Origin: an uncultured delta proteobacterium
Lineage (GTDB): Bacteria; Desulfobacterota; Desulfobacteria; Desulfobacterales; JAFDCJ01
Assembly (NCBI GenBank): GCA_963769935.1
Contig: CAVYNY010000032.1
Location: 192,001 to 256,000, forward strand
DNA length: 64,000 nucleotides
Direction: 5' to 3'
Of this stretch, positions 291-59,692 are shown piece by piece. The notes beneath the pieces were generated by a model. It did not search any database and was not told the origin of the DNA. It saw only the letters and a list, made by a program, of their open reading frames with translations. Made by a program: the position numbers and the translations under genes. How positions within the stretch are numbered: position 1 is the stretch's first letter; every line of letters starts with the position of its first letter.

Positions 291-318
291 CTTCGCGCTC
301 TTTGCGCCTTCGCGGTTC
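291..318. repeat. Degenerate 9-bp tandem array (CTTYGCGCY)
   Basis: cttcgcgct ctttgcgcc ttcgcggttc. Confidence 0.6.
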
Positions 319-559
319 AATCTTTCATAGTAGTGTACTAAAACGAACTAATTTGAGTACTTTGCAGGGTTTTTAATTCACTATTCAAGCTTTGACCCTC
401 TTCATTTTTTACAAACCTGGTCCTCTTTTGAAAAGAAAATTATGTACTGGATTTTTCGGGATGATTAATATACCTTTTTCAGGTTCTAAACAGATCGGTT
501 TGCCGCCGCGGCGGGATGCATCAGCGTATCAAACGTGAAATTATTTTGGAGAGAGCCTT

Positions 560-752
560 AACCCGGACAAGCCGGAACAAAAAAGGACAAATTAATCACG
601 AAAGCACGAAAGGCCGAAAACACGAAAAGAGGATAAGATAAATTTCGTGCTCACGCGGCGCACACAGCAGCGCTGCGCGTTAAAAATTTCGTGTTTTCGT
701 GGTGAAAAAAGTTTTTCATAAAATGCAAAGAATTCACAATTAAGACTATAAA
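560..752 (+). repeat. Dispersed MITE-like element, copy 1 (partner 19981-20143, opposite strand)
   Basis: aacccggacaagccggaac...aattaatcacgaaagcacgaaaggccgaaaacacgaaa...tttcgtgttttcgtg...cataaaat...tcacaattaaga aligns to the reverse complement of 19981-20143. Internal CACGAAA/TTTCGTG arrays are inverted. Confidence 0.85.
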
Positions 753-791
753 GGCCTATCGTCCAAACCTGAAACAGGAAAGGCAAATGCA

Positions 792-1676
792 ATGAGCGTC
801 TGTGTCGAGGATAATGTTCTGGAAGAGTTGTTAACGCTCTTAAAACTTGAAAAAATAGAGGACAACATCTTTCGCGGCCAGAGCCAGGACTTGGGCTTCG
901 GCAGCGTTTTTGGCGGGCAGGTATTGGGCCAGGCGCTGTCGGCCGCCTATCAGACCGTGCCGCCGGAGCGCAGCGTTCACAGCCTGCATGCCTATTTTTT
1001 AAGACCGGGGATTGCGACAAAACCAATCGTCTATGATGTCGACTGCATCCGGGACGGAAAAAGTTTTACCACCCGCCGGGTTCGTGCCATTCAGAAAGGA
1101 CGTGCGATATTCAACATGGCGGCTTCCTTTCAAATAGACGAACCCGGATTTGACCATCAGGAAAGTGCACCTGAAGTTCCCGGACCGGAAGGCTTGAAGT
1201 CCGAACTGGCGCTCGCCCGCCGGGTGGCGGATAAAATTTCACCTAAAATTCGAGATAAAATTCTTTGCAAAAAACCGATTGAGGTGAGAACCGTTAACCC
1301 CGCAGATCCTTTTGCGCCGGAAAAAAGAGAGCCCGTGCGCTGCGCCTGGCTCAAAGCCATCGATAAGCTGCCGGATGATCCGGCGGTACATCAATATCTG
1401 CTCGCCTATGCCTCCGATTTCGGCCTGATCGCGCCTACACTTTATCCCCACGGCCACAGCCCATGGGAGCCGGAAATGCAGGTTGCCAGCCTGGATCATG
1501 CCATGTGGTTTCATCGGAAGTTCCGCATGGATGAATGGCTGTTGTATGTCATGAAAAGTACCAATGCCTGCAAAGCCAGGGGATTGAGCGACGGCAAAAT
1601 CTACACCCGGGGCGGCACCCTCGTTGCATCTGTTGCCCAGGAAGGCCTGATTCGATATCATGGGTTGGAAGGCTAA
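792..1676 (+). CDS. tesB: Acyl-CoA thioesterase II
   Basis: Motifs VFGGQVLGQAL, HSLHAYFLRPG, ASLDHAMWFHR, SVAQEGLIR; 294 aa. Confidence 0.95.
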   Translation: MSVCVEDNVLEELLTLLKLEKIEDNIFRGQSQDLGFGSVFGGQVLGQALSAAYQTVPPERSVHSLHAYFLRPGIATKPIVYDVDCIRDGKSFTTRRVRAIQKGRAIFNMAASFQIDEPGFDHQESAPEVPGPEGLKSELALARRVADKISPKIRDKILCKKPIEVRTVNPADPFAPEKREPVRCAWLKAIDKLPDDPAVHQYLLAYASDFGLIAPTLYPHGHSPWEPEMQVASLDHAMWFHRKFRMDEWLLYVMKSTNACKARGLSDGKIYTRGGTLVASVAQEGLIRYHGLEG

Positions 1677-1710
1677 AGGTAAAAGGCGCAAGGTAAAAGG
1701 TAAAAGGATA
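1669..1710. repeat. 7-bp tandem array (AAAGGTA-like)
   Basis: aaggctaaaggtaaaaggcgcaaggtaaaaggtaaaaggata, overlapping the tesB stop. Confidence 0.75.
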
Positions 1711-1804
1711 ATGGATCGATAGAGGCTCAAGATCACAATATATTTTGAGGGGGAAAATAGATTCAGGTATGAATATAAAGATTTTCCTTTAAGAGAAAAA
1801 AGCC

Positions 1805-3470: not shown

Positions 3471-3503
3471 TAAAATGCCTAAAATGTCTAAAATGCCTAA
3501 AAT
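3471..3503. repeat. 9-bp tandem array (TAAAATGCC)
   Basis: taaaatgcc taaaatgtc taaaatgcc taaaat. Confidence 0.85.
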
Positions 3504-4061: not shown

Positions 4062-4106
4062 AAACAACCCACAACCCACAACCGACAACAAACAACACCC
4101 AACCTA
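4062..4106. repeat. 7-bp tandem array (ACAACCC-like)
   Basis: aaacaacccacaacccacaaccgacaacaaacaacacccaacc. Confidence 0.8.
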
Positions 4107-9058: not shown

Positions 9059-9252
9059 AATATTGAAAGCCTGGTTCTCTAGGCCAGGTCAGAGATGATC
9101 GGCTCTGCCATAGGTCAAATCGGTTCATGGTTTCGAGTGTCAGGTTTCAGGTGTCAGTAAAAATCGAATCCTGAACACTGCTGGTAAACGTGATCACCCA
9201 TATCACCCCTGCGGGGTGGACCAAAGCCGGGCCCTCTGGACCCGGATCTTTA
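9059..9252 (+). repeat. Dispersed element, short (internally deleted) copy; partner 12189-12503
   Basis: Shares cctgg..ggccaggtcagag..gccat..ttcatggttt..gtgtcaggtttcaggtgtcagtaaaaatcgaat..ctggtaaacgtgatcacccat..ggaccaaagccggg..ctctggaccc..gatcttt with the 12.2-kb copy. Confidence 0.9.
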
Positions 9253-9282
9253 CCTATGAGGTCATTAATCTTTGGACATTGA

Positions 9283-9360
9283 TTCACCGCGTGCTTCCGA
9301 CTTCGCGCTTCGAGCTGCGACGGGACAAGTCGCTTAAGGCGCAAAGGTCGCAGAGGCGCT
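9283..9360. repeat. 9-bp-period array (aaggcgcaaaggtcgcagagg) preceded by a hairpin cassette
   Basis: ttcaccgcgt-gcttccgacttcgcgcttcgagctgcgacgggacaagtc-gcttaaggcgcaaaggtcgcagagg. Confidence 0.5.
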
Positions 9361-12188: not shown

Positions 12189-12503
12189 CAAAATTGCAAA
12201 CCTGGTCCTGTGGGCCAGGTCAGAGGATATTGGCTTTGCCATGGGCCAAATCTGTTCATGGTTTCAGGTGTCAGGTTTCAGGTGTCAGTAAAAATCGAAT
12301 TCTGAATCCTGAACACTGATTGGGCTGCAAATGAAGATCAACACTGTTGCAAGAAAGTCCATTGCATGAGGGACTCCGGCCCAGCGGGTCGACTTCAGTT
12401 GCTGACACCTGACACCTGACACCTGAAAACTGCTGGTAAACGTGATCACCCATCTCACCCCTCCGGGGCGGACCAAAGCCGGGCGCTCTGGACCCCGATC
12501 TTT
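12189..12503 (+). repeat. Dispersed element, full-length copy with inverted 7-bp arms (GGTKTCA / CTGACAC)
   Basis: Left arm 12260-12288, right arm 12402-12429. Carries 114 bp (12319-12432) absent from the 9.1-kb copy. Confidence 0.9.
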
Positions 12504-16664: not shown

Positions 16665-16946
16665 GGGTTGAGGGGTTTGGGGTTTGGAGGTTCTGGGTTC
16701 ATAAGGTGTCAGGTGTCAGGTGTCAGAGGACAGAGGACAGAAGCTGGAAAACGGGGAGACGGAGAAACGGAGAAACGGGAGAAACGGGGATATCGAGATG
16801 GTGCCGCCGATCTCTATCCTCCAACCTCCAACATCAATTCCCTGCACCGTCAGCCGTGCGCCGCGTATCTTATTCCGTGAGCCGTGCTCCTTTCGCCTTT
16901 ATCCTTTAGCCTTTAGCCTTTTACCTTTTACCTTTTACTATCAACT
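16665..16946 (-). repeat. Composite modular element, copy I
   Basis: (aggtgtc)3(agaggac)2, (acggagaa)n, gatatcgagatggtgccgcc, cctccaa array, tccctgcaccgtcagccgtgcgcc, (cctttta)n; reverse complement matches 23974-24117. Confidence 0.9.
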
Positions 16947-19565: not shown

Positions 19566-19677
19566 GCACCTCGATCTTCGGTTTTCGCCGGTGTAGCCGT
19601 CCTATTGTCATATCCTCTATTTATAGTTTACAAAATTCAGATTGAACTAATAATGCTTTCTTTTCCATGATTTCGCA

Positions 19678-19875
19678 TAAATTCCAAATCTCAAATTCCA
19701 AATTACAAATAAATCTCAAATCACAAAACTCAAATTCAAAACATACCATAGACGGCATTGAATCAAATCGATTCGGCTGTCTCTGATGAGCTTCGCTCGG
19801 CCAGAGTTCCGACCGAACAAACCACCTTGCGGCAATTCAAGACCTGTTTGGGTCATTGGAGCTTGGAATTCGGAG
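19678..19875. repeat. Inverted 7-bp-array element (CAAATYY arm ... TTGGARY arm)
   Basis: aaattccaaatctcaaattccaaattacaaataaatctcaaatcacaaaactcaaattcaaa ... tgtttgggtcattggagcttggaattcgg. Confidence 0.75.
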
Positions 19876-19980
19876 TTTTATGACATTTTTCGCAGATCTT
19901 TGCAAGAGATGCGTACCGGCCCGGCATCGGTTTAATAGTCCTTGCCTGCTAGGTAAGATTTTGTTAATTTTGAGATAACT

Positions 19981-20143
19981 TTTAGATTCTTAATTGTGAT
20001 TTCTTCGTATTTTATGCAAAAATATTTTTATCACGAAAACACGAAATCTTGAAAACACGAAATTTATCTTCTTTACTTTTCGTGTTTTCGTCCCTTCGAG
20101 CTTTCGTGATTAATTTCTTTTTTGGTTCCGGCTTGTCCGGGTT
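19981..20143 (-). repeat. Dispersed MITE-like element, copy 2 (partner 560-752)
   Basis: Ends ttggttccggcttgtccgggtt; CACGAAA/TTTCGTG arrays. Confidence 0.85.
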
Positions 20144-22845: not shown

Positions 22846-23805
22846 TTGAGAGTATTTATCATAGCCAAATCCAAGCGACACACCCGGATTTATTATTATT
22901 TCAAAAAGGCCTTTCAACGGCAGGGACACCAGGCAAGCTGGATCAAGTATCTGAAACTGAAATCATATCTGGGAGAGCGGGCCGCCACGGCTTTCGTCGA
23001 TAGGCTGATGTTCATATCCAGACCGGACCTGCTGTTTTTTCACGGCCGTGATATCTCCTATGAACTGCTGCTGCGGGCTAAAAAGCGAATGCCGGTTGTG
23101 ATGTACTATGATGATTGCATAAAAGGCTCAAGCCGCAGTTTTGAAGAAGTCATAAAGCAGGGGCGGCAAGCCGATATCATGTACCTGACGAACCGGGGAG
23201 AAGTCGCACAGTACCGGCAACGGGGCGTCAATGCCCGGTTTATTACCGGCGGCTGCGATCCGGCGGCGCATCGAATGATCGACTGCCCGGATAAATCCTA
23301 TCAAAGCGAGGTGGCATTCATCGGAAGACCCAACACCCCTGAACGCGTAGAGTGCATGCAGGCGGTGGCCAAAAAATTTGATTTAAAGCTGTGGGGGGCG
23401 GGCTGGGAAAAATATGGACTGAGCGCCGCGGCCCCGGATGTTTACGCAGCGGAATATCGGAAAATTTGTGCCGGGGCCAAGATCGTGCTCGGCTGGAATA
23501 TTGACGCCGCCGTAGAGCTTTATTTTTCAAACAGGACTTGGTACACTCTGGGGTGCGGCGGTTTTCTGTTGACCGCCTATTGTCCGTGCCTTGAGGAGCT
23601 GTTCGGACGGGGCCGAGAGTTGGATTGGTTTGAGAGCCCGGATGAGTGCTGTACCAAGATCGCTTACTATCTGGCACATGATGACGAACGGCAAAAAATT
23701 GCGGCGGCGGGTTATCGGTTGGCGCATAGCGAATATAGTTATGATAAGATGGTGGAGCGGATTGTTGGAGAGGTGCAGGAAGAGGGGCTGATGCATAAGG
23801 CATAA
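22846..23805 (+). CDS. CgeB-like glycosyltransferase (Glyco_trans_1_2)
   Basis: EVAFIG, YFSNRTWYTLGCGGFLLT, RQKIAAAG; TTG start. Confidence 0.8.
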   Translation: MRVFIIAKSKRHTRIYYYFKKAFQRQGHQASWIKYLKLKSYLGERAATAFVDRLMFISRPDLLFFHGRDISYELLLRAKKRMPVVMYYDDCIKGSSRSFEEVIKQGRQADIMYLTNRGEVAQYRQRGVNARFITGGCDPAAHRMIDCPDKSYQSEVAFIGRPNTPERVECMQAVAKKFDLKLWGAGWEKYGLSAAAPDVYAAEYRKICAGAKIVLGWNIDAAVELYFSNRTWYTLGCGGFLLTAYCPCLEELFGRGRELDWFESPDECCTKIAYYLAHDDERQKIAAAGYRLAHSEYSYDKMVERIVGEVQEEGLMHKA

Positions 23806-24120
23806 GGCGCACGACTGACGGTGCAGGGAATCGATGTCGGAGGTTGGAGGCGGGGCCTTCGGTCGGGAGAGGTTAGAGGTTGGAGGCAAAAGGTGGGCGC
23901 TGGCGCGCCAGTTCATAGCTCATAGCTGATAGGTTAGAGGATAAAGGCTAAAGGCTAAAGGTTAGAGGAAAAAGGCGCACGACTGACGGTGCAGGGAATC
24001 GATGTCGGAGGTTGGAGGATAGAGATAGGCGGCACCATCTCGATATCCCCGTTTCTCCGTTTCCCCGTTTTCCAGCCTTCAAGCCTCCCAGCTTCTGTCC
24101 TCTGACACCTGAAACCTATA
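23792..24120 (+). repeat. Composite modular element, copy II (contains an exact 47-bp direct repeat)
   Basis: aaggcgcacgactgacggtgcagggaatcgatgtcggaggttggagg at 23804-23850 and 23972-24018. Confidence 0.9.
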
Positions 24121-24164
24121 ACTGCTGCAGCATCGAGCGCCAGCAACTTCAAGATAGAATCCGA

Positions 24165-24217
24165 TAACTATCATCCAGTAATCAGTGTCCAGAATCGAGT
24201 ATCCAGAAACCAGCAAT
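24165..24217. repeat. 7-bp tandem array (ATCCAGW-like)
   Basis: atccagtaatcagtgtccagaatcgagtatccagaaaccagcaa. Confidence 0.65.
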
Positions 24218-24224
24218 CGGTAAA

Positions 24225-25328
24225 ATGAAAATCCTGCACATCAACACCGAGCGCACCTGGCGGGGCGGGGAGCAGCAGACCTTGTATCTGCTGGAAGGCC
24301 TCAAGGCCCGCGCCATAGCCTGCCACCTGGTCTGCCAAGCCGGATCGCCGCTGCAGGAAAGGGCCGACGAAGCCGGTATCGATGTGTTTCCGGTTGTGAT
24401 GCGCGGGGAGGCTGATTTGTTTGCCGGCATGCGCATCCGCCGGCTGATCAAAAAATATAGCTATTCTATCATTCATTCCCACACCTCGCATGCCCATACG
24501 ATTGCCTATCTGGCCTCGGTCGGCACCGCAGTCCGGCGCCTGGTCACCCGGCGGGTGGATTTTTCCATTTTTCGCAGCAGTTTTCTGCACTTGAGCGGTT
24601 TCAAGTACCGCTTTATGGCCGATGACTACATCGCAATCTCCAACAGGATCAAGGCGGTGCTGGTCAATGACGGCATTTCGGATCGGCGTATTTTTGTGGT
24701 GCACAGCGGCGTCGATCCGGAAAGATTCCGGCAGGCAAGCGGCGACCATCTGCGGTCTGAATTCGATATCAAAGACCACGAGAAGATCGTCATCAATGTT
24801 GCGCACCTGGCGGGTCATAAGGGTCAAAAGTATCTCATACGGGCGATTCCGTATGTTCTGACGAAAATGCCCAATACCCGGTTTTTCATTGTCGGACGGG
24901 GCGAGTTGATGGAAGAGCTGCAAGCGCTGGCTTCCTCCCTGGGGCTGAAAGGGCAACTCGTATTCACCGGCTTTCGCGGCGATGTGGGGGACTTTTATAA
25001 AATCGCCGATCTATACGTGATGAGCAGTGTTGAAGAAGGCCTTGGCACCGCGGTTCTGGATGCCATGGCTGCCGGCAAACCCGTCGTGGCAACCACGGCG
25101 GGAGGCCTGCCGGAAATCGTGTGTGACGGAAAAACCGGCCGGCTGGTTGCGCCGGCCGATCCGGCGGCGCTGGCCGAGGGAATGCTCGATTTGTTGACCC
25201 GCCCCGAGCTGGCCGACGCGATGGCCGCCGAGGCCCGGGCCAAAGTGCGGCAATGTTTTTCCATTCAGGCCATGGTTGATAAAAACATCGAAGTATATAG
25301 AAAAATCCTGGCAACAGATGATGATTGA
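24225..25328 (+). CDS. GT4 glycosyltransferase
   Basis: TWRGGEQQ, TRRVDF, HKGQ, EEGLGTAVLDAMAAG. Confidence 0.92.
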   Translation: MKILHINTERTWRGGEQQTLYLLEGLKARAIACHLVCQAGSPLQERADEAGIDVFPVVMRGEADLFAGMRIRRLIKKYSYSIIHSHTSHAHTIAYLASVGTAVRRLVTRRVDFSIFRSSFLHLSGFKYRFMADDYIAISNRIKAVLVNDGISDRRIFVVHSGVDPERFRQASGDHLRSEFDIKDHEKIVINVAHLAGHKGQKYLIRAIPYVLTKMPNTRFFIVGRGELMEELQALASSLGLKGQLVFTGFRGDVGDFYKIADLYVMSSVEEGLGTAVLDAMAAGKPVVATTAGGLPEIVCDGKTGRLVAPADPAALAEGMLDLLTRPELADAMAAEARAKVRQCFSIQAMVDKNIEVYRKILATDDD

Positions 25329-28619: not shown

Positions 28620-29090
28620 GTCATAGCTCATAGCTGATAGGTTGGAGGATAAAGGCTAATGGTTAAGGGCTAAAGGTAAAAGGTTAAGGGCTAAAGGAGA
28701 AAGGCGAACGGCTTACGGTGCAGGGAATCGATGATGGAGGTATGAGGTTGGAGGCGGGGCCTTCGGCTGGATGAGGTTTGAGGTTAGAGGTTGGAGGCAG
28801 GAGATACAAGGTGCAGGGAATTGATGGTGGAGGTTGGAGGCAAAAGATACAAGGTGCAGGGCTTACAGGGCCAGCTGATAGTTGATTGGTTTGACTGACG
28901 GATGGGTTCCCTGAATGCTCATGAGCTTTGATGCTCACGAACTTACGAGCTCACGAACTTCAGCAGCTTGCCTACCACGCAGCTTCTCCGCTTCTCCGCT
29001 TCTCTCCCAGCTTCTCCGCTTCTCAGCTTCTCCGCTTCTCAACTTCTCATCTTCTCGGTTTCCCAGCCTCCAACCTCTTACTCCTGACAC
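28620..29090 (+). repeat. Composite modular element, copy III
   Basis: catagctcatagctgatagg, aaaggct array, acggtgcagggaat modules, block 28856-28969 shared with 42360-42472, cttctc 8-bp array. Confidence 0.9.
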
Positions 29091-29105
29091 AGGTTATTTA
29101 AATCT

Positions 29106-30257: not shown

Positions 30258-30443
30258 AAGGCCGGAAGGCTCGCCGGCTGGGAAACATTCCAGCATTCCA
30301 GCTTCCTCGCTGCCCACCTTCTCAACTTCTCGTCTTCTCAACTTCTCGTCTTCTCAACTTCTCGTCTTCTCAACTTCTCAACTTCTGATTTTTCTTATCT
30401 TCTTATCTTCTCACCTTCCCAACTCCCCAGCCTCCCTGCTTTC
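30258..30443. repeat. 8-bp tandem array with 16-bp higher-order period
   Basis: (cttctcaa cttctcgt)x3 then cttctcaa cttctcaa at about 30318-30386, with degenerate flanks. Confidence 0.9.
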
Positions 30444-30448
30444 AATGT

Positions 30449-32567: not shown

Positions 32568-32633
32568 AATCAGGAAAGTGCGGGGCCGACTTTTTTGGGC
32601 TTGCGATTTCGTTTCAGCTCATTATATGACATA

Positions 32634-32733
32634 GGTTGAAGGGTTCAGGGTTTCACGTTCAGGGTTGAAAAATCCCCAATCCATTATGTTTATCGGATGT
32701 ATCCTTTGAACCTTGAACCCTGAACTTGGAACC
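32634..32733. repeat. Inverted 7-bp-array element (GGGTTCA / TGAACCY)
   Basis: ggttgaagggttcagggtttcacgttcagggttg ... tttgaaccttgaaccctgaacttggaacc. Confidence 0.85.
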
Positions 32734-32746
32734 GATTGGTATCGAG

Positions 32747-36970: not shown

Positions 36971-37456
36971 ATGGATGTATCTGCCAAAATAGCAACAGCC
37001 GGCAAACTGATTTCCGGTTTGGATAAAGCGCGCCAGGCCGGTAAAAAGATCGTTTTCACCAATGGCTGCTTTGACATCCTGCACGTCGGTCACGTCAGGT
37101 ATCTTGCGGCCGCCAGGTCCGCAGGCGACCTGTTGGTTGTCGGGCTGAACTCAGATGCATCCGTGCGGTCGATAAAAGGCGATCGGCGGCCGCTGGTAAA
37201 CCAGGACCAGCGTGCGGAAGTTCTGGCAAGCCTGATGTGCGTGGATTATGTCGTGGTATTCGATGAGCCTGACCCGCTGAGATTGATTCAAACGCTAAAA
37301 CCGGACATACTGGTCAAAGGTGCTGATTGGGGAGAGGAAAATATTGTCGGCGCCGAGTTTGTAAAATCAAGGGGCGGTAAAATTATACGGGCGCAACTGG
37401 TGCCGGAGACTTCTACCACTCAGATCATCGATCGCATTGTCAGGAGATTCTGCTGA
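36971..37456 (+). CDS. rfaE2: D-glycero-beta-D-manno-heptose 1-phosphate adenylyltransferase
   Basis: FTNGCFDILHVGH, GLNSDAS, LVKGADW, STT. Confidence 0.93.
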   Translation: MDVSAKIATAGKLISGLDKARQAGKKIVFTNGCFDILHVGHVRYLAAARSAGDLLVVGLNSDASVRSIKGDRRPLVNQDQRAEVLASLMCVDYVVVFDEPDPLRLIQTLKPDILVKGADWGEENIVGAEFVKSRGGKIIRAQLVPETSTTQIIDRIVRRFC

Positions 37457-38229
37457 TGATTCACACCAGCAAAAACGGCACATCCTATTACCGGTTTGAA
37501 AACCTGGCGGGCTGGGACGGAATCGACCATAGGATTTTCACACGCGGCAACGGTTTCAGCCCCCGGCCTTTTGCCAGTTTGAATGTCTCCCTGGGCATCG
37601 GAGATGCTGAAACAAATGTTGTCCGAAATCGGGACCTCATCCGCCGGAGCATGGCAGGGGGCGATTTTGTTTACGCCCGCCAGGTCCACGGATGCAGTAT
37701 TGCCGTGCTGAAAGGTCCTGGACCGGAGCCAGGCGCCGAAACTGCTGCCGGTGCCATAACCGCAGACGCCCTGGTAACCGACCTGCCCGGCAAATATCTG
37801 GTCATTCAGGTGGCGGACTGCCAGGCTGTGCTTTTATATGATCCTGTCCGCCGGGTGATTGCCAATGTACATTGCGGCTGGCGGGGCAGCCTGCTCAACG
37901 TCATCGGCCGCGCACTCGAGGCGATGACGCATCATTTCGGCTGCCGCCCTGAGCGTATTCGGGCCGGGATCGGCCCTTCCCTGGGTCCCTGTTGTGCTGA
38001 ATTTATCAATTATAAAGCGGAGATTCCCGCTGACTTGTGGACTTATAAGGAGGCCAACGATCATTTTGATTTTTGGGCCATCAGCCGCGATCAACTGATG
38101 CGCGCCGGGGTTGTGGAGAAAAACATTGAAGTCAGCCGGATTTGCACCCGCTGTCGAACCGATGAGTTTTATTCCTATCGCGCTGCCAAGACCACCGGCA
38201 GATTTGCGGTGGTGATCGGGATTAAATAA
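37456..38229 (+). CDS. pgeF: Peptidoglycan editing factor / purine nucleoside phosphorylase (YfiH family)
   Basis: QVHG, VADC, HCGWRG, IGPSLGPCC, YSYR. Confidence 0.93.
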   Translation: MIHTSKNGTSYYRFENLAGWDGIDHRIFTRGNGFSPRPFASLNVSLGIGDAETNVVRNRDLIRRSMAGGDFVYARQVHGCSIAVLKGPGPEPGAETAAGAITADALVTDLPGKYLVIQVADCQAVLLYDPVRRVIANVHCGWRGSLLNVIGRALEAMTHHFGCRPERIRAGIGPSLGPCCAEFINYKAEIPADLWTYKEANDHFDFWAISRDQLMRAGVVEKNIEVSRICTRCRTDEFYSYRAAKTTGRFAVVIGIK

Positions 38230-38268
38230 TTGAATATCGAATATTGTAAATCTTCAATCTTCAATTGA
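38228..38268. repeat. Minimal inverted 7-bp array (TTGAATA / TCTTCAA)
   Basis: aattgaatatcgaatattgtaaatcttcaatcttcaattga. Confidence 0.6.
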
Positions 38269-38278
38269 GAAGGGGGCC

Positions 38279-40579: not shown

Positions 40580-40718
40580 GATTTAATATTTTCGATTGAA
40601 TATTGAAAATTTGAGGTTCGCCTTCGGCGGATCCATTTATAATAATTCAGCAAAGACAGCGCACAACGACATCCACGAATATTCAATATTCAATTTTCAT
40701 TATTCAATGATTTCAATG
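40580..40718. repeat. Inverted 7-bp-array element (TTGAATA / TATTCAA) between atpB and atpE
   Basis: gattgaatattgaaaattt ... gaatattcaatattcaattttcattattcaat; same family as 52355-52459. Confidence 0.85.
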
Positions 40719-41330: not shown

Positions 41331-42191
41331 ATGGACGAAAATCATATCATGCAGCAGCTGAATAAAATCAAGGATATTCCAACGCTGCCAACCATTGTAT
41401 TTGAGCTGAACAAACACCTGGAGAACCCGGAGACCTCCATTGCCAAAGTCAGCGAGACCATCGAAAAAGATCAGGCGATGGCCTTAAAAATACTCAAGCT
41501 GGTCAATTCGGCCTTTTATGGCTTCAAATCCAGGGTCAGTAATATCAAAAATGCCGTGGTCCTGCTGGGCTTTAATGCCGTACGCAATGCAATTGTGTCC
41601 GTCTCCATCATCAATACCCTGCCCAAGACCCTTTTGTTTCAGGATTTTGAAATGAACGAGTTCTGGAGGCATTCCCTGGCAGTGGCGGTGACCAGCAAAA
41701 ATATTGCCCAGCGGGCGGGACTGGAGTCGCCGGACAATTGCTTCGTCGGCGGACTGCTGCACGATGTCGGCAAAGTGATCCTGGCCCAATACTTCCAGGA
41801 TCTGTTTGTCAAGGTCTGGTCCCGCATGCAACAGAAAAGTGTGTCCTTTCATGAAGCTGAGCTGCACGAACTGCCGGTCGATCATGCCAAGATCGGTGCT
41901 TATCTTGCCGAGCGCTGGGCGCTGCCCCAGGGGTTGATCGATGCATTACGCTGGCATCACGAGTTTCAGCCGGATATCCCCAACACCAATTTTGTCATGA
42001 TCATTTATCTGGCCAACATTCTGGTCAATGGCTATGACGAAAATCCGGATTGTACGATTGATATGAGTGCCATGCATCCGGAGGCAGTCAAATTTTTGAT
42101 GAGCCAGCTGCAAGGTACGGCGGACTGGTATTCCAGTCTGGCTGGTGAAATTGAGGCGGCCTACGAACTATTCCTGGAGCCGGACGCCTGA
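41331..42191 (+). CDS. HDOD domain protein
   Basis: IPTLP, KLVNSAFYG, FWRHS, GLLHDVGK, DHAKIG, HH. Confidence 0.92.
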   Translation: MDENHIMQQLNKIKDIPTLPTIVFELNKHLENPETSIAKVSETIEKDQAMALKILKLVNSAFYGFKSRVSNIKNAVVLLGFNAVRNAIVSVSIINTLPKTLLFQDFEMNEFWRHSLAVAVTSKNIAQRAGLESPDNCFVGGLLHDVGKVILAQYFQDLFVKVWSRMQQKSVSFHEAELHELPVDHAKIGAYLAERWALPQGLIDALRWHHEFQPDIPNTNFVMIIYLANILVNGYDENPDCTIDMSAMHPEAVKFLMSQLQGTADWYSSLAGEIEAAYELFLEPDA

Positions 42192-42192
42192 T

Positions 42193-42550
42193 GCGGGTTG
42201 CGGGTTGCGAGGTGCGTGTTGCGAGTAGGCAGAGGACAGAGGCTGAGAAGCGGGGAGACGGGGAGACGGAGAAACGGGGAGACGGGGAGACGGGGAGGCT
42301 GAGAAGCTGAGAAGCTGAGAAGCAAAGAAGCTAAGAAGCTGAGAAGCTGAGAAGTAGGGAAGCTGCTGAGTTCGTGAGCTCGTAAGTTCGTGAGCATCAA
42401 AACTCTTGAACATTCAGGAAACCCATTTGTCAGTTAAACCGATCAACTATCAGCTGGCCCTGTAATCCCTGCTGCCGTGAACCCAGCACTTTATACCTTA
42501 GCCCGGTACCTTTCATCTCTTGCCTCCAACCTCCAACCTCCAACCTCAAG
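42193..42550 (-). repeat. Composite modular element, copy IV
   Basis: tgcgggt array, acggggag and gctgagaa 8-bp arrays; block 42360-42472 shared with 28856-28969; block 42487-42530 shared with 56100-56142. Confidence 0.9.
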
Positions 42551-45983: not shown

Positions 45984-47323
45984 ATGGAAGCCGTCTGGAA
46001 CAAGGTAAAATCTACAATTAAGAAACGCATTCCCGCCCACAGCTACAAGATGTGGATTGAACCACTGCAAGTTGGTCAACCCGACAACCATTCCCTGCTT
46101 GTGCTCTGCCCGAATTTCTTTTCCAGAAAACGGGTGCAGGGCCTGTATGGTGAGATGCTGAAAATTGCCTTCGAAACCGTCTTGGGGCACGAATGTGAGC
46201 TTACGTATGAAATATCCATAAGGCCGATGAACCGAAACCTAAAGAGGTCGAGGATCCTCAGCTGCCGTTGCCCAATGACAATGTGCGGCCATATAACGGC
46301 CGGTTTTTACGCCGGGATTTTACCTTTGATCAGTTTGTTGTCGGCAGCAACAATGATTTTGCCTATTCAGCATCCCTGGCATTGGCCTGCCGCAAAAACA
46401 CCCAGCAAAATGCCTTATTCCTGCTGTCCAAGACCGGCATGGGGAAAAGTCATCTGTCCCAGGCGATCGGTCATCATGTAATGTCAATCCAACCCACGGA
46501 CCGGGTCTATTATATTACGGCTGAAGATTTCAGCAACGAGATGGTTCAGGCATACCGGCACAGTTCCATAGATAAATTTAAGGATAAATACCGCAACCAC
46601 TGTGATGTTTTACTGTTGGAGGATGTTCATTATCTCAGCGGTAAGGAGCGCACCCAGATAGAGCTTGCCTTGACCCTGGATACCCTGTTCGAATCCGGCA
46701 AACGCATCATTTTTTCCAGCTGTTATCTGCCGGCGGATATTCCCAAACTCAATGACAAGTTAAGTTCCCGTTTGTCCTGCGGGCTCATATCAACCATCGA
46801 TCCGCCGAATTTCAGGACCCGCGTGCGGATCCTGCAAAAGAAGGTGTGGACCAACTCGTATCAGCTCCCTGAAAACGTCATTCATTATCTGGCGGATGAA
46901 TTGACCGAGGACGTCCGGCAGCTTGAAAGCGGACTCAACGGTGTCGCCGCCAAATCATCGCTGCTGGGAATACCGGTTGATCTCAAACTGGCTGAAAGTG
47001 TCGTCAAAAATATTGTTCGCCAGCGCAAACGCATTACCATCGATGTTATCAAAAGACTGGTATGCAAATATTATAATGTCGGCTTGGATGAAATTGATTC
47101 ACGCTCCCGCAAACAAAACCATGTCCGACCCCGGCAAATAGCCATCTACCTGGCACGGCAATATACGGATGCTCCGTTGCAGACCATCGGCAAATCCTTC
47201 AACCGCTATCATGCCACCGCCCTGCATTCCATCAACTGCATTGAACGTGCGATGAAACAGGACAGCGCTCTTCAAAAACAGGTGGGGTTCTTCCGCCAGA
47301 AGCTGGAAAACGGCAAGTTCTAG
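45984..47323 (+). CDS. dnaA: Chromosomal replication initiator DnaA (divergent), split by a -1 frameshift in the domain II linker
   Basis: Domain I (WNKV..SYKMWIEPL..PNFF) is in frame 45984. Linker, AAA+ (FTFDQFVVG, GMGKSHL, LLLEDV) and domain IV (PRQIAIYLAR, IGKSFNRYHAT) are in frame 46268, which is open back to 46211. Confidence 0.85.
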
Positions 47324-47478
47324 GAATGTCGAATGTCGATTGACGAATGACTCTGGAATGTCGAACGAAGAATGAAGAATGCCGAATGAAGGTATTCTAT
47401 CATTTTTTAAAATAAATGATGGAGCGCAGCGGCCTCAACTATTCGACATTCGTCATTCTTCATTCCTGAGTCATTCCC
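47323..47478. repeat. Inverted 7-bp-array element (GAATGTC/GAATGAA ... GACATTC/TCATTC)
   Basis: ggaatgtcgaatgtcgattgacgaatgac...gaatgaagaatgccgaatgaa ... attcgacattcgtcattcttcattcc. Confidence 0.85.
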
Positions 47479-48269: not shown

Positions 48270-48618
48270 AAAAGGGTTTAGAGGTTTGGGGCTCCGCCCT
48301 TCGGGCTTCGACCCCACACGCAGGGCTGAGTTTTAAGTTTGAGAGGTTGTGAAGCTGGGAGGCTCGGAAGCTGGGAAACGGGGAAGCGGGGAAGCGGGGA
48401 AGTTGAGAAGTCGAGAAGTCGAGATGGTGCCTCCGACCTCTAACCTCAAGCTTCCAACATCACTACCGTCTGCCCTGCACCTTTATCCTTTAACCTGTCA
48501 GCTATGAGCTATCAACTGGCGCGCCGGCGCCTTGCTTTTTACGCTATGCGCCATGCTCTATGCCCCCTGCCCACATCCTGCAACCCGCAACACGCCTCCA
48601 ACCTCAAACCTCAAGTCC
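48270..48618 (-). repeat. Composite modular element, copy V
   Basis: gaagcggg and gagaagtc arrays, gagatggtgcctcc, gctatgagctatcaactggcgcgccggcgccttgctttttacgctatgcgccatgctcta (reverse complement matches 55941-55993). Confidence 0.88.
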
Positions 48619-48625
48619 TTACCAC

Positions 48626-51653: not shown

Positions 51654-51736
51654 GAGGCCTCAGACAAGCAGTTGCGTGGTTTTTAGGTTATTGTTTGACA
51701 GACGAATTTAACACAATGCCTTCTTAAACCGCCCTC

Positions 51737-51883
51737 GAGTTGGTAAGTTGGTAAGTTATTCAGCTGGTAAGCCCGATAAAATAAAATTAGGAAATCCTTT
51801 TCCGCTTAACAGCTTATGAGCTTAATAGCTTACCAGCTTTTCCTCCAACCTTTTGCGCTTAACAGCTTACGAGCTATGAGCTA
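51737..51883. repeat. Inverted 8-bp-array element (GTTGGTAA / GCTTAMCA) between rplI and dnaB
   Basis: gagttggtaagttggtaagttattcagctggtaagc ... gcttaacagcttatgagcttaatagcttaccagc ... gcttaacagcttacgagct. Confidence 0.8.
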
Positions 51884-51893
51884 TTTACTCCGC

Positions 51894-52354: not shown

Positions 52355-52459
52355 GTTGATTGAATATTGAAGATTGAAAATTGAATATTTGTGGAATTCT
52401 ATCTGAATATAAACTTCATTTTTTTCGAGTTCGTCAAAACTTCAATCTTCAATTTTCAA
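52355..52459. repeat. Inverted 7-bp-array element (TTGAARA / TYTTCAA)
   Basis: attgaatattgaagattgaaaattgaatatttgtgga resembles the reverse complement of 40670-40707; right arm acttcaatcttcaattttcaa. Confidence 0.85.
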
Positions 52460-53382
52460 GGTACCGGTTTCCCCAATCTTCTGAAATTTACCCACATATC
52501 AAAAAAACCTAAGCCGATGACGGCCAGCAGTATCAACTGCTGCAGCGCAATCAAGGCGTACAGAAAAAACCGGATAACCCGGGGAAACTTCTTTTTCTCA
52601 AAATAAAACGATACGATCGCGATTCCCTGAAAAAAATAAACGGTCATGGAGATTAAGAGGCCGTTTAGGCCGATAATTTTCACGGCTGCTATCGGTATAA
52701 ACAGCGCCAGACCGCAGCCGATAACCCCCCATACCAGAATTTCAGGCGCTTTCCACAATTGCAAGGGACCGAAATCCGGATAAAAAAGCGATCGCCTTTT
52801 CAGGATCGGTTTTGCCAAAAGAATATTGGTCCAGGCAACAAACAGCGTCGACATCGTCACCAGGGCCGGCAGGATGGTCACCAGAACCTGCCCGATCTGG
52901 TTCAGCGAACGGGATATCAGCTGAACATTTTCTTCCGACATCCCCATGCCCCGGTACAATGCCAGGGTCAGCTCCAGATTTTTAGCAACATATTTGGATA
53001 CAACGGTGAAAATACCATCACCGGATATCAGGCTGAATATGATCAGGCCGATCAGACCGGAAAGCAGCACGCTGCCGCTGGCATAAAGCAGCGTTTTTTC
53101 AATCGAAAGATTAAACTCGATCAATTCCCCCAGCATGAACCCCAGCAGCAGTAAACCGGCAAAGAATACCATGTCCGTGGACATATCGCCGATCGCAATT
53201 ATCAGAATCAGGCCGGAAATCAGCGGGATAAGGCCCCCGGTTTTCCTTCCCAGCTTCAGACGGTAAAAGAGGATCGGCAAGGGAACAAACAGGGCACCAA
53301 CGAACCCGACGATCGGAATAAACACCGACACTAAAAAAAACAGGCTTGTGATTACTACGCCATTGACGATATCCTTTGCCAT
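52456..53382 (-). CDS. DUF2232 / YybS family membrane protein
   Basis: Polytopic protein with FFQGIAI and GLGFFDMWVNFRR, in the conserved rpsR-X-rplI position. Confidence 0.88.
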   Translation of the reverse strand: MAKDIVNGVVITSLFFLVSVFIPIVGFVGALFVPLPILFYRLKLGRKTGGLIPLISGLILIIAIGDMSTDMVFFAGLLLLGFMLGELIEFNLSIEKTLLYASGSVLLSGLIGLIIFSLISGDGIFTVVSKYVAKNLELTLALYRGMGMSEENVQLISRSLNQIGQVLVTILPALVTMSTLFVAWTNILLAKPILKRRSLFYPDFGPLQLWKAPEILVWGVIGCGLALFIPIAAVKIIGLNGLLISMTVYFFQGIAIVSFYFEKKKFPRVIRFFLYALIALQQLILLAVIGLGFFDMWVNFRRLGKPVP

Positions 53383-54511: not shown

Positions 54512-54734
54512 CTTAAGCGTCTGTTCACCAATAATTTTTGATCCAAACCCGGCCGATCAATGACAGAATTTGTAAGACACCGAGTGCAGGATGTCAAGGG
54601 ATAACTCGCCTTCAGCCTGCCGGATGATGAAATGTTGATCACGCTGAAATCCGGAAAAAGATTTCACGGGATAAAAGCATCGGATCAAAAATAGGAAAGA
54701 TTATATGATTTTTGCTCTTTTAAAATTTGAGTTA

Positions 54735-54763
54735 GCCACGAATGGACACGAATAGCCGCGAAT
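54735..54763. repeat. 9-bp tandem array (CACGAAT core)
   Basis: gccacgaat ggacacgaat agccgcgaat. Confidence 0.65.
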
Positions 54764-54889: not shown

Positions 54890-55648
54890 ATGGTCAGTTT
54901 TTCACTCAAAGATAAAACAGCCCTTATTACCGGCGCCAGCCGGGGTATTGGCGAAGCGATTGCGCTGACGCTGGCAGAAAACGGTGCCCGCTGCATCCTC
55001 ACCAGCCGAAAGATGGAAGGGCTGCAGGCCGTGGTTCAAAAAATCGGATCCGCGGGCGGGCAGGCCGAGGCCTTCGCCTGCAACGTGGGCCGCAAGGAAG
55101 ACATCGATAAGCTGTTCGAACACGTGCAGCAGGCATACGGTGAGCTTCACATTCTGGTCAACAATGCCGCCACGAATCCTTATTTCGGAGATATGATGGG
55201 AGCCGATGAGCGGGCCTGGGACAAAACCAATGACGTCAACCTCAAGGGCCCCTTCTTCATGATTCAGCATGCCGTCCGGCTGATGGAAAAAGCCGGCGGC
55301 GGTGCCATCGTCAATGTCGCATCCATCAACGGTGTGCGACCGGTACCCAGGCAGGGGATATATTCCATAACCAAAGCCGGTCTGATATCCATGACCAAGG
55401 CCTATGCCAAAGAGCTGGCCGGCCGAAATATACGGGTGAACGCCCTGCTGCCGGGGCTTACGGAAACTAAATTTTCGGAAGTGCTTATCAAGAACGACCG
55501 GATCTATGAGCAGGTCGTCAAGAGCATCCCCCTGCAGCGGCATGCCCGGCCGGCGGAGATGGCCGGCGCCGTGCTCTATCTGGTATCCGATGCCGCTTCA
55601 TACACCACCGGCACGACGATTATCTGCGACGGCGGTGCGTTGGCCTGA
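54890..55648 (+). CDS. Short-chain dehydrogenase/reductase (DHRS4-like)
   Basis: TGASRGIG, NNAATNP, catalytic YSITK, RVNALLPG. Confidence 0.93.
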   Translation: MVSFSLKDKTALITGASRGIGEAIALTLAENGARCILTSRKMEGLQAVVQKIGSAGGQAEAFACNVGRKEDIDKLFEHVQQAYGELHILVNNAATNPYFGDMMGADERAWDKTNDVNLKGPFFMIQHAVRLMEKAGGGAIVNVASINGVRPVPRQGIYSITKAGLISMTKAYAKELAGRNIRVNALLPGLTETKFSEVLIKNDRIYEQVVKSIPLQRHARPAEMAGAVLYLVSDAASYTTGTTIICDGGALA

Positions 55649-55651
55649 AAA

Positions 55652-55898
55652 AGGTGTCAGGTGTCAGCGCCGCCGCCGGCCAAGACAACGGCCGGTCTGA
55701 TCATGAAGAAACGGAAACAGACATAGTTCGACCGCAGCAGCCCACTTGCAGCCTCCGCCCATAGGGCCTACGCCCCGGCGGGCCGTAGAACGCCGAGAAA
55801 GAAAAGTTAAATTAATCTCTGCGCTCTCTGCGCTCTCAGCGGTGAGACACTTCGTAAAAATGGCATCGAATTTAAGGAAGTTTCATTTGAGGTGTCAG
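55652..55898 (+). repeat. Dispersed element (partner 5049-5110) containing an inverted 9-bp array and a nested hairpin cassette
   Basis: aggtgtcaggtgtcagcgccgccgccggcc..acggccggtctgatc; accgcag...cgccgag / ctctgcgctctctgcgctctcagcggt; cassette at 55752-55782. Confidence 0.8.
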
Positions 55899-55911
55899 AC
55901 GGAATTGGAGA

Positions 55912-56232
55912 AGCGGGGTGTGGGTTGCGGGGAATGGACATAGAGCATGGCGCATAGGGTAAAAAGCAAGGCGCTGGAGCGCCAGTTGATAGTCAAAGGC
56001 TAAAGGTAAAGGTTAAAGGATAAAGGCGCACGGCTTACGGTGCAAGAAATTGATGTTGGAGGTTGGAGGCGGGGCCTTCGGCCGGAAGCGGTTTGAGGTT
56101 GGAGGCAAGAGATGAAAGGCACCGGGCTAAGGTATAAAGTGCAGGTTAGATTCAAGATTTGCGTCTTCTTAACTTCTCAGCTTCTTTGCTTCTCAGCCTC
56201 CCCGTTTCTCCGTTTCCCAGCCTTCCAGCCTC
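55912..56232 (+). repeat. Composite modular element, copy VI
   Basis: tagagcatggcgcataggg..ggcgctggagcgccagttgatag, aaaggct array, ggcgcacggcttacggtgca, ggcggggccttcggcc, gaggcaagagatgaaagg, cttctc array. Confidence 0.9.
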
Positions 56233-56251
56233 AAAACTTTGGATTGGATCG

Positions 56252-57685: not shown

Positions 57686-58329
57686 AGATCAAAGCCGTAT
57701 TTTGGGATTTTGGCGGCGTATTGACGACGAGTCCATTCGACGCCTTTAACAGGTTCGAGCAGGAGAATCATTTGCCCCCCGACTTCATAAGGCGGGTGAA
57801 TGCCGCCAACCCGGATACCAATGCCTGGGCCGGGCTGGAACGCAGTGAGATTACCCTGGAAGAGTTTGACCGGCAATTCGAACGGGAGACGACGGCAGCC
57901 GGTCATGCGGTAAGGGGAATGACCGTCCTGGAGCTGTTGTCCGGGGATTTGCGACCTGAAATGGTGGCGGCGCTGCGCAGGTGCAAGAAGAAGTTCCGCA
58001 CCGCCTGTCTGACCAACAACATGAAGGGGCTGCATGAAGCCGGCATCAAGCAGTTCAGCCGGCGGGCCGCCGAAATGCAGGCCGTCATGGATATTTTTGA
58101 CCACGTCGTCGAATCAAGCAGGATCGGTTTTCGCAAGCCGAATCCGCGCTTTTACGAGATCGCCTGTAACATCGTGAAAGTTGCGCCCGCGCAGGTGGTT
58201 TTCCTTGACGATCTGGGAGTCAATCTGAAGCCGGCCCGTGCCATGGGCATGACCACCATAAAGGTAGCCGAACCTCGCCAGGCTTTGGCCGAGCTTGAAT
58301 CATTGCTGGGGATGGTGCTGATCGGATAA
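57682..58329 (+). CDS. HAD-IA hydrolase (epoxide hydrolase N-terminal / ACAD10-like)
   Basis: WDFGGV, LTNN, ES..GFRKP, FLDDLGVNLKPARAMGM; GTGA overlap. Confidence 0.88.
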   Translation: MKIKAVFWDFGGVLTTSPFDAFNRFEQENHLPPDFIRRVNAANPDTNAWAGLERSEITLEEFDRQFERETTAAGHAVRGMTVLELLSGDLRPEMVAALRRCKKKFRTACLTNNMKGLHEAGIKQFSRRAAEMQAVMDIFDHVVESSRIGFRKPNPRFYEIACNIVKVAPAQVVFLDDLGVNLKPARAMGMTTIKVAEPRQALAELESLLGMVLIG

Positions 58330-58376
58330 AATGCTGACCGGTTCCAAGATAAAGCTACAATTAAACCTTGAGCATG

Positions 58377-58411
58377 CTGGAGTATTGGAGTATTGGATTG
58401 ATGGAGTATTG
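58377..58411. repeat. 8-bp tandem array (TGGAGTAT)
   Basis: tggagtat tggagtat tggattga tggagtat tg. Confidence 0.8.
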
Positions 58412-58457
58412 ATAGAAACAATAGTGGAAATTTTCCATTAGGCACGGGGAGGCGGTT

Positions 58458-59579
58458 ATGCCGCTGGTATGTGGATCCAAGGAATTAATGGACGATGTTC
58501 ATAAACGGGAATTGTGCATCGGGTGCGGTGCCTGCGTGGATATCTGCCCCTACTTTAAAAACTACAAAGGCAAAACCTCCCAATTATTTCCGTGCACGCT
58601 GGATCAGGGGCGCTGTTTTGCCTATTGCCCCAAGGCCGAGGTGGACCTGGATCACCTCTCCCGGCAGATATGCGGGGTTCCCTACGACGGCAGCCCGCTG
58701 GGAAACTACCGCGAGGTGCTGGCCGGCCGGGCCGGCCGGAGAATCGAGCGGGCCTCATTTCAGGCCGGCGGTACCGTATCGGCGCTGCTGGCATTTGCAA
58801 TGGAAAAAGGCATGATTGATGCAGCGGCCCTCACCGACCGTGAGGCGCTGACGCCGGTTGCGCGTCTGGTGACAAACCGGCGCGATATTGCCGGCTGCGC
58901 CGCCTCCAAGTTTATGGCCGCTCCGACCGTATCCTCGGTTAACAGGGCCGTGCGTGAAGGCTATACCCGCATCGGGGTAGTTGGAACACCCTGCCAGATG
59001 GTGGCGGTGGCGCAAATGCGCTGTAATCCCCTGGCCAAAGCCGAACACCGCATCCCGCTTGCGTTCGCGGTCGGGCTGTTCTGCAACTGGTCGCTGGATA
59101 CCCGGCAGCTGATTGACCTGATGTCGCAAAAGGTCGACCTATCGGGCCTCCGGGGCATGGACATCCCGCCGCCGCCGGCCGCCGCCATGGTGCTGGACAC
59201 TGAAAACGGACCGGTCGAAATACCGCTTTCTGAGATCAAACCGCTTATACCGCACACCTGCTTTATCTGCCCGGACATGACCTCGGAACTGGCCGATGTC
59301 TCCGTCGGAATGTTCGAAGGGCGGCCGCACTGGAACACGCTGATCATTCGTTCCGACAAAGGGGCCGAGGTGGTCGACCAGGCCCGGCGGGAGGGGTTTC
59401 TCGAAACGGAAGATTTTCCCGCCCAGAATTTAAAACATCTCTCCCGGGCCGCCGCCGACAAAAAGGACCGTTCGCTGAGAACGCTGCTTCGCAGGGGGCT
59501 GATCAATAACCAGGACGGTGAACGGGCGGCCCTGCGGATACCGCCGGCAGTGGTGGAGAAGATTTTAAATAAAGGTTAG
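58458..59579 (+). CDS. FrhB/FdhB-family (F420 hydrogenase beta-like) iron-sulfur flavoprotein
   Basis: CIGCGACVDICP, QAGGTVSALL, VGTPCQ, GLFC, C..C.D...ELADVSVG. Confidence 0.88.
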   Translation: MPLVCGSKELMDDVHKRELCIGCGACVDICPYFKNYKGKTSQLFPCTLDQGRCFAYCPKAEVDLDHLSRQICGVPYDGSPLGNYREVLAGRAGRRIERASFQAGGTVSALLAFAMEKGMIDAAALTDREALTPVARLVTNRRDIAGCAASKFMAAPTVSSVNRAVREGYTRIGVVGTPCQMVAVAQMRCNPLAKAEHRIPLAFAVGLFCNWSLDTRQLIDLMSQKVDLSGLRGMDIPPPPAAAMVLDTENGPVEIPLSEIKPLIPHTCFICPDMTSELADVSVGMFEGRPHWNTLIIRSDKGAEVVDQARREGFLETEDFPAQNLKHLSRAAADKKDRSLRTLLRRGLINNQDGERAALRIPPAVVEKILNKG

Positions 59580-59692
59580 CCGAGTTGGCCCGTCAGCCCG
59601 TTGAGCCCGTTAGGCGACTAACAGATAGTAAAATGGAAATGTTCATCAGCTTAACCGGCTAAACCGGCAAACGGGCCAACCGGCTTAACCGA
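59576..59692. repeat. Inverted 8/9-bp-array element (GCCCGTT / AACCGGC)
   Basis: ttagccgagttggcccgtcagcccgttgagcccgtt ... aaccggctaaaccggcaaacgggccaaccggcttaacc. Confidence 0.8.

Follow-up and report, generated by a model that had tools for sequence, protein, structure and literature searches.

The stretch of DNA analysed here, which we call the window, comprises 64,000 nucleotides (nt) from an uncultured delta proteobacterium (G000:C32:192001-256000, where G000 is the source genome, of 8.0 Mb in 41 contigs). Its genes are housekeeping genes, for lipopolysaccharide synthesis, the atp operon, uvrA, dnaA, dnaB and ribosomal proteins, and the spacers between them carry degenerate tandem arrays with periods of 7 to 9 nt. 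We report the architecture of these arrays, their polarity, adjacency to stop codons, shared units and turnover, the conservation and decay of the cargo genes that belong to them, and one transposon that carries them. We think it likely that the arrays are gene-less, one-armed and mosaic descendants of cassettes, in which a gene for a four-helix-bundle or a GxxExxY protein lies between two arrays ('arms'), and that they were copied into sites just behind stop codons.

Census and anatomy of the arrays

Tandem Repeats Finder (TRF) returned 100 rows for the window. After merging, these yield 62 arrays of period 7-9 at a score of at least 30 and 32 at a score of at least 40, which bears out a sequence-only reading of the same DNA that had counted about 30. 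The arrays named in that reading lie at or near the places it gave, with three corrections: the one at 291 mixes 8- and 9-mers and is below the TRF threshold, that at 54735 has a period of 10, and '40580' stands for two arrays, paired at about 40596 and 40678. The reading had noticed no arrays in coding DNA. This is correct for the window, where none of the 32 lies inside a gene, but not for the whole of G000, where 19 arrays of period 7 or 8 sit at least 30 nt deep within called genes, some of them perhaps through gene-calling errors. Long reading frames with internal heptamer arrays, partly as inverted pairs, occur at C10:574025-574137, C10:579890, C18:284555-284740 and C19:111468-111642. 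The main anatomy, inverted arm pairs of fixed polarity, was absent from the earlier reading.

Coding and non-coding DNA of G000 were separated with a simple gene caller run for this analysis. At a TRF score of at least 40, non-coding DNA holds 682, 339 and 216 arrays of period 7, 8 and 9 (1,237 in total) and only six of periods 1-6; the corresponding numbers for periods 7, 8 and 9 in coding DNA are 37, 6 and 27. Three dinucleotide shuffles of the intergenic DNA gave 0-1, 0-2 and 0-1 such arrays, 1-3 in total. The narrow range of periods is therefore unlike that of generic microsatellites, as the earlier reading had supposed. A second detector found 1,689 non-coding arrays of period 7-9, and 1,681 of them are spread over 1,064 of the 4,916 spacers, about one fifth.

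At periods 7 and 8, arrays have a median of 4.4 units. There are about 25 unit families, each a degenerate word of fixed and free letters. In profiles of 24 seed families (1,297 arrays at most 25% from a seed), most positions of a unit show about 90-100% conservation; the one to three free positions show 40-60%. Adjacent units are identical in just 5-26% of cases. Six of nine families are at or below the random rate, and three, one of them a contaminated pattern, are above it. Low identity between neighbours, together with the fixed and free letters, is not the signature of polymerase slippage.

It is thus most improbable that the arrays are ordinary slippage repeats with a preferred 7-nt step, a hypothesis cited in PMC4692102 (this and the other papers cited here were available in part, and statements about them refer to those parts). 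Slippage does trim arrays: in close strains, represented by contigs from four metatranscriptome runs of one study with 23-38% of words shared, window arrays differ in length by 8, 14 and 24 nt, and perfect 14- and 16-mer duplications occur. However, slippage microsatellites and contingency simple sequence repeats have near-identical units, abundant short periods and no polarity, whereas here periods 1-6 are nearly absent, polarity is fixed, arms pair in inverted orientation and units are identical with those of cargo arms. The position-specific unit profiles, unexpected under slippage, add to a case that already stood against it.

The full form of the element is an arm, a gene and the reverse complement of the arm. 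Many arrays form inverted pairs of fixed polarity, with the G-rich strand directed inward. Pairs 30-250 nt apart number 79 in G000, as against about 13 in unit permutations, and of 112 inverted pairs 97 have the G-rich arm first. No more than 5 nt separates the outer arm from a stop codon in 210 of 675 cases, and from a start codon in 14 of 437. Arrays occur in 12% of divergent spacers versus 24% of co-directional and convergent ones, and 551 of 677 sit in the half of the spacer predicted by the orientation of cargo. The AAATHHC family (window 19676-19880; loci L073, L074, L102, L137 and L109) has reversed polarity, with the C-rich arm first and a left arm that enters the start of the four-helix reading frame.

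We considered whether stop codons in every reading frame account for periods 7 and 8 and rejected this, since only 10 of 24 units contain a stop when read inward. Nor did a shared promoter-like motif emerge from the gaps between arm and cargo start: at 61 loci no 5-7-mer was clearly above shuffles.

Gene-less composites recur in G000 as mosaics. The median identity of their best hits is 80%, and 44 of 423 best hits of at least 100 nt reach 95% identity or more; 32 best hits lie within 10 kb, as against 2.8 expected. A single mosaic family, concentrated in 40 kb, occupies window positions 16672, 23800, 28610, 42190, 48272 and 55900. Inner words of the GGAATTCTATC and GAGCGWAGCGA types, common to several 7- and 9-mer families, stand beside arms at 40596-40700, 47390-47440 and 52390-52405. 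The word GGAATTCTATC is present in 36 of 922 array spacers and in 13 of 2,554 others, and such inner words could be recombination points for hybrids.

The elements of the window are as follows, with strand where one is assigned and the supporting evidence in brackets; z denotes folding relative to shuffles. Twelve window elements were folded, and 11 of them proved more stable than their shuffles (z -2.0 to -9.1), the exception being one mosaic.

212..325, plus strand: a copy of the flanking repeat of G000's own GxxExxY gene; its end is the CTTYGCGC array (88-89% identical to C8:188420-189073 over 110-114 nt)
594..705: gene-less hairpin with CACGAAAA-type 8-mer arms, a GxxExxY-type unit (TRF, unit match, fold z -4.6)
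1669..1716, plus strand: solo AAAGGYN arm over the tesB stop codon, with no cargo unit match found (TRF, unit comparison)
3471..3503, plus strand: TAAANTGCC 9-mer arm directly behind a stop codon, with the unit of the arms of four-helix cassette L158 (TRF, unit match)
4064..4104, minus strand: solo C-rich arm, ACAACCC, ahead of a start codon (TRF, unit comparison)
9060..9300, plus strand: composite element with an AGGTKTC arm, a relative of 12185-12510 (86% over 114 nt)
12255..12435: gene-less hairpin with AGGTKTC arms, a unit shared with a four-helix clade known from at least four loci (z -6.4; 93% over 246 nt to a copy on C8)
16672..16940: mosaic, in which G-rich arms of several units are stacked at the left and C-rich arms of others lie at the right (the inverted copy at 23800-24120 is 80% identical over 195 nt; whole-element z 0.0)
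19676..19880: AAATHHC pair, C-rich arm first, with the unit of four-helix cassettes L073, L102 and L137 (TRF, unit match, fold)
20030..20110: CACGAAAA hairpin with 46 related loci in G000 (z -8.5)
23800..24225: mosaic with a C-rich arm of the GGATRCT family (14-nt deletion at 24159 in close strains)
28610..29100: mosaic, inverted relative of 42190-42550 (77% over 307 nt)
30255..30450, minus strand: long 8-mer arm of the GAGAAGNT family adjoining a minus-strand stop codon (TRF, unit comparison)
32630..32735: AGGGTTC hairpin (TRF, unit comparison, fold)
37454..37458, plus strand: rfaE-pgeF junction, empty in G000 (junction comparison with relatives)
38229..38270: minimal TTGAANA pair that begins at the pgeF stop codon (sequence inspection, relatives' spacers)
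40590..40712: TTGAANA hairpin between atpB and atpE (relatives' spacers, close-strain contigs, fold)
42190..42550: mosaic between convergent genes, its arms beginning at both stop codons (skipped in close-strain contigs)
47322..47470: GAATGNC hairpin between dnaA and suhB (unit comparison, fold)
48272..48620: mosaic between suhB and hflX (missing in one close strain)
51735..51890: GTTGGTAA-type 8-mer hairpin between dnaB and rplI (TRF, fold)
52355..52460: TTGAANA hairpin with the unit of the arms of G000 four-helix gene C13:92588 (unit match)
54733..54763, plus strand: period-10 CACGAAT arm (TRF, genome self-comparison)
55648..56235: stack of AGGTKTC, CAGAGAGCG, AAAGGYN, GAGGTTG and GAGAAGNT units (first 250 nt match about 25-45 loci per position)
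58378..58411, plus strand: solo GGARTRNT arm, of the unit family of G000 four-helix gene C9:239319 and of an IS91-type element (unit match)
59582..59692: GCCGGTTG/GTTGAGCCC hairpin with the unit of four-helix gene C11:329909 (z -9.1)

Two side observations concern the window itself. At 4890-5005, within an AGGTKTC element, lies an inverted pair GTGGGAG...CTCCCAC, which resembles repetitive extragenic palindromes (REPs) and is a repeat of another class. In the region 45383-47323, the gene call for dnaA starts at 46268 (351 aa), with a model match from position 101 onward only; a contig has a one-base insertion near 46215-46219, so the window's dnaA may hold a frameshift or assembly error.

Cargo genes and their arms

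By profile matches, G000 has seven four-helix genes (PF05635/TIGR02436) and two GxxExxY genes, and the window has neither, as the sequence-only reading had said. Six of the seven four-helix genes lie between inverted arms and one between direct arms, judged by eye. The genus sample draws on 16 of 22 genomes of the same genus for PF05635 (120 of 131 matches) and includes 30 of 33 GxxExxY matches. Complete flanks are available for 98 of its four-helix genes. Arrays stand on either side of 75 of these genes, and 60 have an inverted arm match (reverse complement, at most two letters off), against a null mean of 7.7 and maximum of 16; each orthologous copy enters these counts separately. By way of control, inverted matching arms surround only 5 of 810 ordinary small genes of G000. 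GxxExxY arms are 8-10-mers and are present on both sides in 17 of 23 cases. The association with both gene families, which the earlier reading had mentioned for other anaerobes, is thus real in G000 and across the genus.

The same units recur in the dispersed arrays. A unit exactly equal to that of a cargo arm is found in 551 of 967 arrays of period 7, 192 of 458 of period 8 and 82 of 264 of period 9, versus 81, 11 and 1 with shuffled units. In the window, 15 of 41 arrays have an exact cargo-arm unit and 30 of 41 come within one letter of one, the latter a weak test for 7-mers; AAAGGYN-like units had no match among the fetched cassettes.

The four-helix protein matches the structures 2RLD and 2GSC, of five chains each, and GxxExxY is PF13366, for which no solved relative was found. 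Cassettes have the direction of the upstream host gene in 106 of 111 cases. The dN/dS of orthologues at the same site is about 0.02-0.14, which indicates purifying selection on the cargo. An armless four-helix clade (L056, L084, L124, L130, L147 and L148), at one conserved locus and under purifying selection, is possibly a domesticated member. Inverted pairs 200-1,200 nt apart enclosed four-helix genes and host-looking open reading frames (ORFs) only, and so revealed no further cargo family; those ORFs were not scanned against the library.

Turnover across relatives

In a quick tree of the four-helix proteins (120 columns, 42 of 104 inner branches unresolved), most clades keep one unit family, and several retain their unit at two to four different sites. 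Cargo genes are mostly inherited, at one site per clade, whereas empty arms number about 1,700. Flanks of cargo loci are protein genes wherever mapped (26 of 144 loci have no mapped flank).

A single spacer may be empty in one relative, hold another unit in a second and a complete cassette in a third, and the junctions g4021, g137, g5915 and g2080 have unrelated cargo in different relatives. For example, the rfaE-pgeF junction (window 37456) is empty in G000 and short in nine relatives, while G008 has a full four-helix cassette there and G018 a gene-less composite. The spacer between atpB and atpE holds TTGAANA, TAAANTGCC, AGTTGATT or GAATGNC arms, a hybrid, or nothing, depending on the relative. 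Even in metatranscriptome contigs 96-98% like the window, the element at 48272-48620 is missing, and 153 nt between atpB and atpE are swapped for 210 other letters.

Altogether 45 cargo junction rows were mapped to G000. Four junctions keep the gene; at about ten, some of them judged by eye, arms remain but the cargo is truncated or gone. Of the others, five have a spacer of at most 6 nt, and in the rest this comparison revealed no arm of the relative's unit. Truncated cargo lies between intact arms at C1:129250, C8:55780, C2:18140, C16:3994, C28:130631 and C13:346424, and at C11:574463 G000 has arms of the same unit without the cargo that is present in G014. At C9:226200-226260, a junction that carries a cassette in six relatives, the 3' end of the host gene apparently derives from a right arm, with AACCAAT-type units in frame up to the stop codon.

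These decayed sites are what one would expect if every array were the left-over of its own full cassette, inserted there and then deprived of its gene, as the sequence-only reading proposed when it called the window's copies cargo-less remnants. Cargo-less and truncated cassettes do exist elsewhere in G000, but the window copies are not seen to be remnants at their own sites: no window array maps to a cargo site, and the only window junction among the 45 rows, rfaE-pgeF, does have cargo in a relative, yet is empty in G000. The numbers point the same way: the genus sample yields 45 junction rows, whereas about 1,700 arrays occupy 1,064 spacers, and the gene-less composites form multi-copy families with close and local best hits. 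We therefore regard this explanation as unlikely. With about 1,700 arrays and some ten cargo genes, most arrays are more likely to be gene-less copies.

A second alternative, also unlikely though slightly less so, is a post-transcriptional system kept by the host, in which hairpins in the mRNA or protein-binding repeats behind stop codons tune processing or stability and the four-helix proteins are regulators. Arms adjoin stop codons and avoid divergent spacers, and cargo is conserved and vertically inherited, all of which suits such a role; moreover, RNase III cuts the stems of intervening sequences (IVSs) in rRNA (PMC4990558), and MacGregor proposed translational regulation for the TAACTGA repeats (PMC4679880). 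However, there is no G-U bias toward the transcribed strand (123 vs 109 in cassettes, 54 vs 51 in empty pairs), and free letters match between arms no better than in swapped-arm nulls in seven of eight families, the single positive family (p 0.008) resting on a pattern that also catches another family. Both results argue against selection for a perfect mRNA stem. Furthermore, the same spacer of an essential operon has different units, or none, in relatives.

Carriers, related systems and mechanism

One carrier is known in some detail. An IS91-type element, new to our knowledge in enclosing arm, four-helix gene, transposase and arm, consists of a GAAC end, a GGARTRNT arm, the four-helix gene, a transposase (PF14319 + PF04986), a small ORF, the mirror arm and a fixed right end. 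One relative has eight copies at different sites, six of which were compared and are 99.2-100% identical, and further records hold relatives of the element, including L294 and L295 with intact transposase frames of 420-425 codons directly behind the four-helix gene. The loci are L288-L293, L297, L314, L294, L295 and L311, with a second, IS-like gene nested in two copies. G000 retains a deleted remnant (C13:346330-346641), two left ends and six arm-linked right ends.

The element resembles the IS91 family as described in PMC13181058 in its Y2 HUH transposase of the same two domains, its upstream GAAC, which fits the GAAC/GTTC terIS cleavage site, its small ORF before the transposase, and the absence of a visible target duplication. 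It differs in that its upstream ORF is the four-helix gene, that tandem arms lie inside both ends, and that its right flank is AT-rich, with neither the GTTC/CTTG target beside oriIS nor GAAC/CAAG. The transposon demonstrably carries one unit family. That transposases of this type are the general mover of all unit families is nevertheless improbable, for all the copies, intact frames and ends just described: a single family is involved, the end motifs occur in few array spacers, and PF04986 is found in 15 of 41 genomes and was not found in the array-rich G003, G017, G020 and G021. Because of this last result, we read the element as one carrier among others.

Just as improbable as slippage is the writing of arms by a reverse transcriptase (RT) with an Avd-like protein, after the fashion of telomerase or of diversity-generating retroelements. 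In its favour, the four-helix protein matches bAvd weakly (33.4 bits, cut-off 40), the free letters seem randomly drawn, and G000 has ten RT matches. But the variable letters of the unit profiles are adenines on neither strand, no RT was found in array-rich G003 and G022 or in cargo-rich G037, G039 and G025, draft genomes in which RTs may be missed, and none is among the nearest mapped cargo neighbours listed, for which no search aimed at linked RTs was made. The linked RT, the pair of template and variable repeats and the adenine-specific variation of diversity-generating retroelements are thus not found here. The surveys of RTs and IS91-type elements identified no system-wide mover or dedicated generating enzyme.

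Several points weigh against descent of the arrays from cargo cassettes. A strict inverted partner is detected for only 221 of 1,689 arrays, although degenerate partners escape detection. Ten of the 98 four-helix genes have no arms, and GxxExxY arms match in inverted orientation in only 5 of 17 cases by the same metric, for which the null maximum is 5. No window array has cargo at its own site among the fetched loci. The agreement between clades and units reflects, in large part, common descent at one locus, and for that reason does not demonstrate binding. Within the genus, array density correlates with the number of four-helix genes (rho 0.52; 21 genomes, 6-20 kb each), but RT density does equally well (rho 0.53), and kin are not independent. 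In 16 genomes of other families, where densities come from small samples of the first five contigs each, array density and cargo number are uncorrelated (rho -0.07), so that cargo is not sufficient; G037, G039 and G025, for instance, have 7-11 four-helix genes and 1-4 arrays per 100 kb (46-89 kb samples). Neither a target duplication nor a constant end, the features of MITEs, was seen in 15 comparisons of filled and empty junctions or in the close-strain joints; a divergence of 20-25% can hide both. Finally, we know of no catalytic activity of the four-helix protein.

Heptamer repeats of the same general kind are known as the short tandemly repeated repetitive (STRR) sequences of cyanobacteria. 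The arrays share with these their intergenic 7-mers, G-rich strand after stop codons and scarcity in divergent spacers, and differ in host and in the named motifs. The heptamers of Xanthomonas and Nostoc (PMC4692102) are likewise intergenic, with a period of 7, about four units, inverted pairs, the G-rich strand just after stop codons and few copies between divergent genes. The TAACTGA repeats of Beggiatoaceae (PMC4679880), whose mechanism of transfer is not evident, follow similar positional rules. Each of these two papers, in its available parts, treats one motif and names no cargo gene or mover; in contrast to the published heptamers, most units here cannot form G-quadruplexes, and periods 8-10 are common.

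A gene is present in the IVSs of 23S rRNA in Coxiella and Leptospira, whose ORF encodes the S23p/four-helix family, of no known function, and in Coxiella tandem heptamers precede it (PMC4990558). Full cassettes of G000, all outside the window, likewise have a PF05635/TIGR02436 ORF between inverted ends with tandem heptamers; they lie between protein genes rather than in an rRNA helix, however, and come with about 25 unit families and about 1,700 gene-less arms. REPINs, the doublets of REPs, and their REP-associated tyrosine transposases (RAYTs; PMC3116915) are similar in having few, mostly vertical genes flanked by their own repeat, and hundreds of intergenic doublets, singlets and mosaics. 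There, doublets outnumber singlets, whereas here singlets dominate by the strict count above, which misses degenerate partners. There, palindromic REPs accompany an HUH Y1 transposase, whereas here tandem degenerate 7-9-mers accompany a four-helix (PF05635) or PD-(D/E)XK (PF13366) protein; G000 has 11 matches to the Y1 family PF01797, whose flanks lay outside the comparison. By analogy, then, the system appears to work like REPIN-RAYT and to have the full form of an ORF-bearing 23S IVS, yet it lacks defining features of both. Outside subscription journals and supplements, we found no published link between four-helix or GxxExxY genes and dispersed arms.

Under descent from cassettes, which we favour, cassettes would spread by copying into sites directly after stop codons, where sites are filled, emptied and refilled with other units. 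Internal deletion would take out the cargo, gene-less copies would then spread on their own and recombine with one another into mosaics, and slippage would be limited to trimming copy number. The fixed letters are likely to be read by the cognate protein, much as a RAYT partners its REPs, while movement itself probably borrows outside machinery. A homopentamer (PMC4990558, citing a Xanthomonas structure) would meet four to five units, which is a fit of numbers only. A broader proposal, which we put forward tentatively and hold to be doubtful, is that stand-alone four-helix pentamers and GxxExxY nucleases read periodic single-stranded arms in a sequence-specific manner, one unit per subunit. 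They would then form a RAYT-like system, so far undescribed, and be the source from which 7-9-nt repeats, long without explanation, are seeded just behind stop codons in many bacteria.

Work on the surplus of heptamer repeats in bacteria has dealt with one motif at a time and, in the available parts of PMC4692102 and PMC4679880, gives no source for them. This genus has about 25 unit families side by side with matching genes, and hence a ready matrix of protein by unit for cross-specificity, and the filled and empty allele pairs of close strains offer a means of mapping insertions. If our interpretation is true, it would join STRR-type repeats, rRNA intervening sequences and two large families of unknown function, and it would account for a feature of about one fifth of the spacers of G000.

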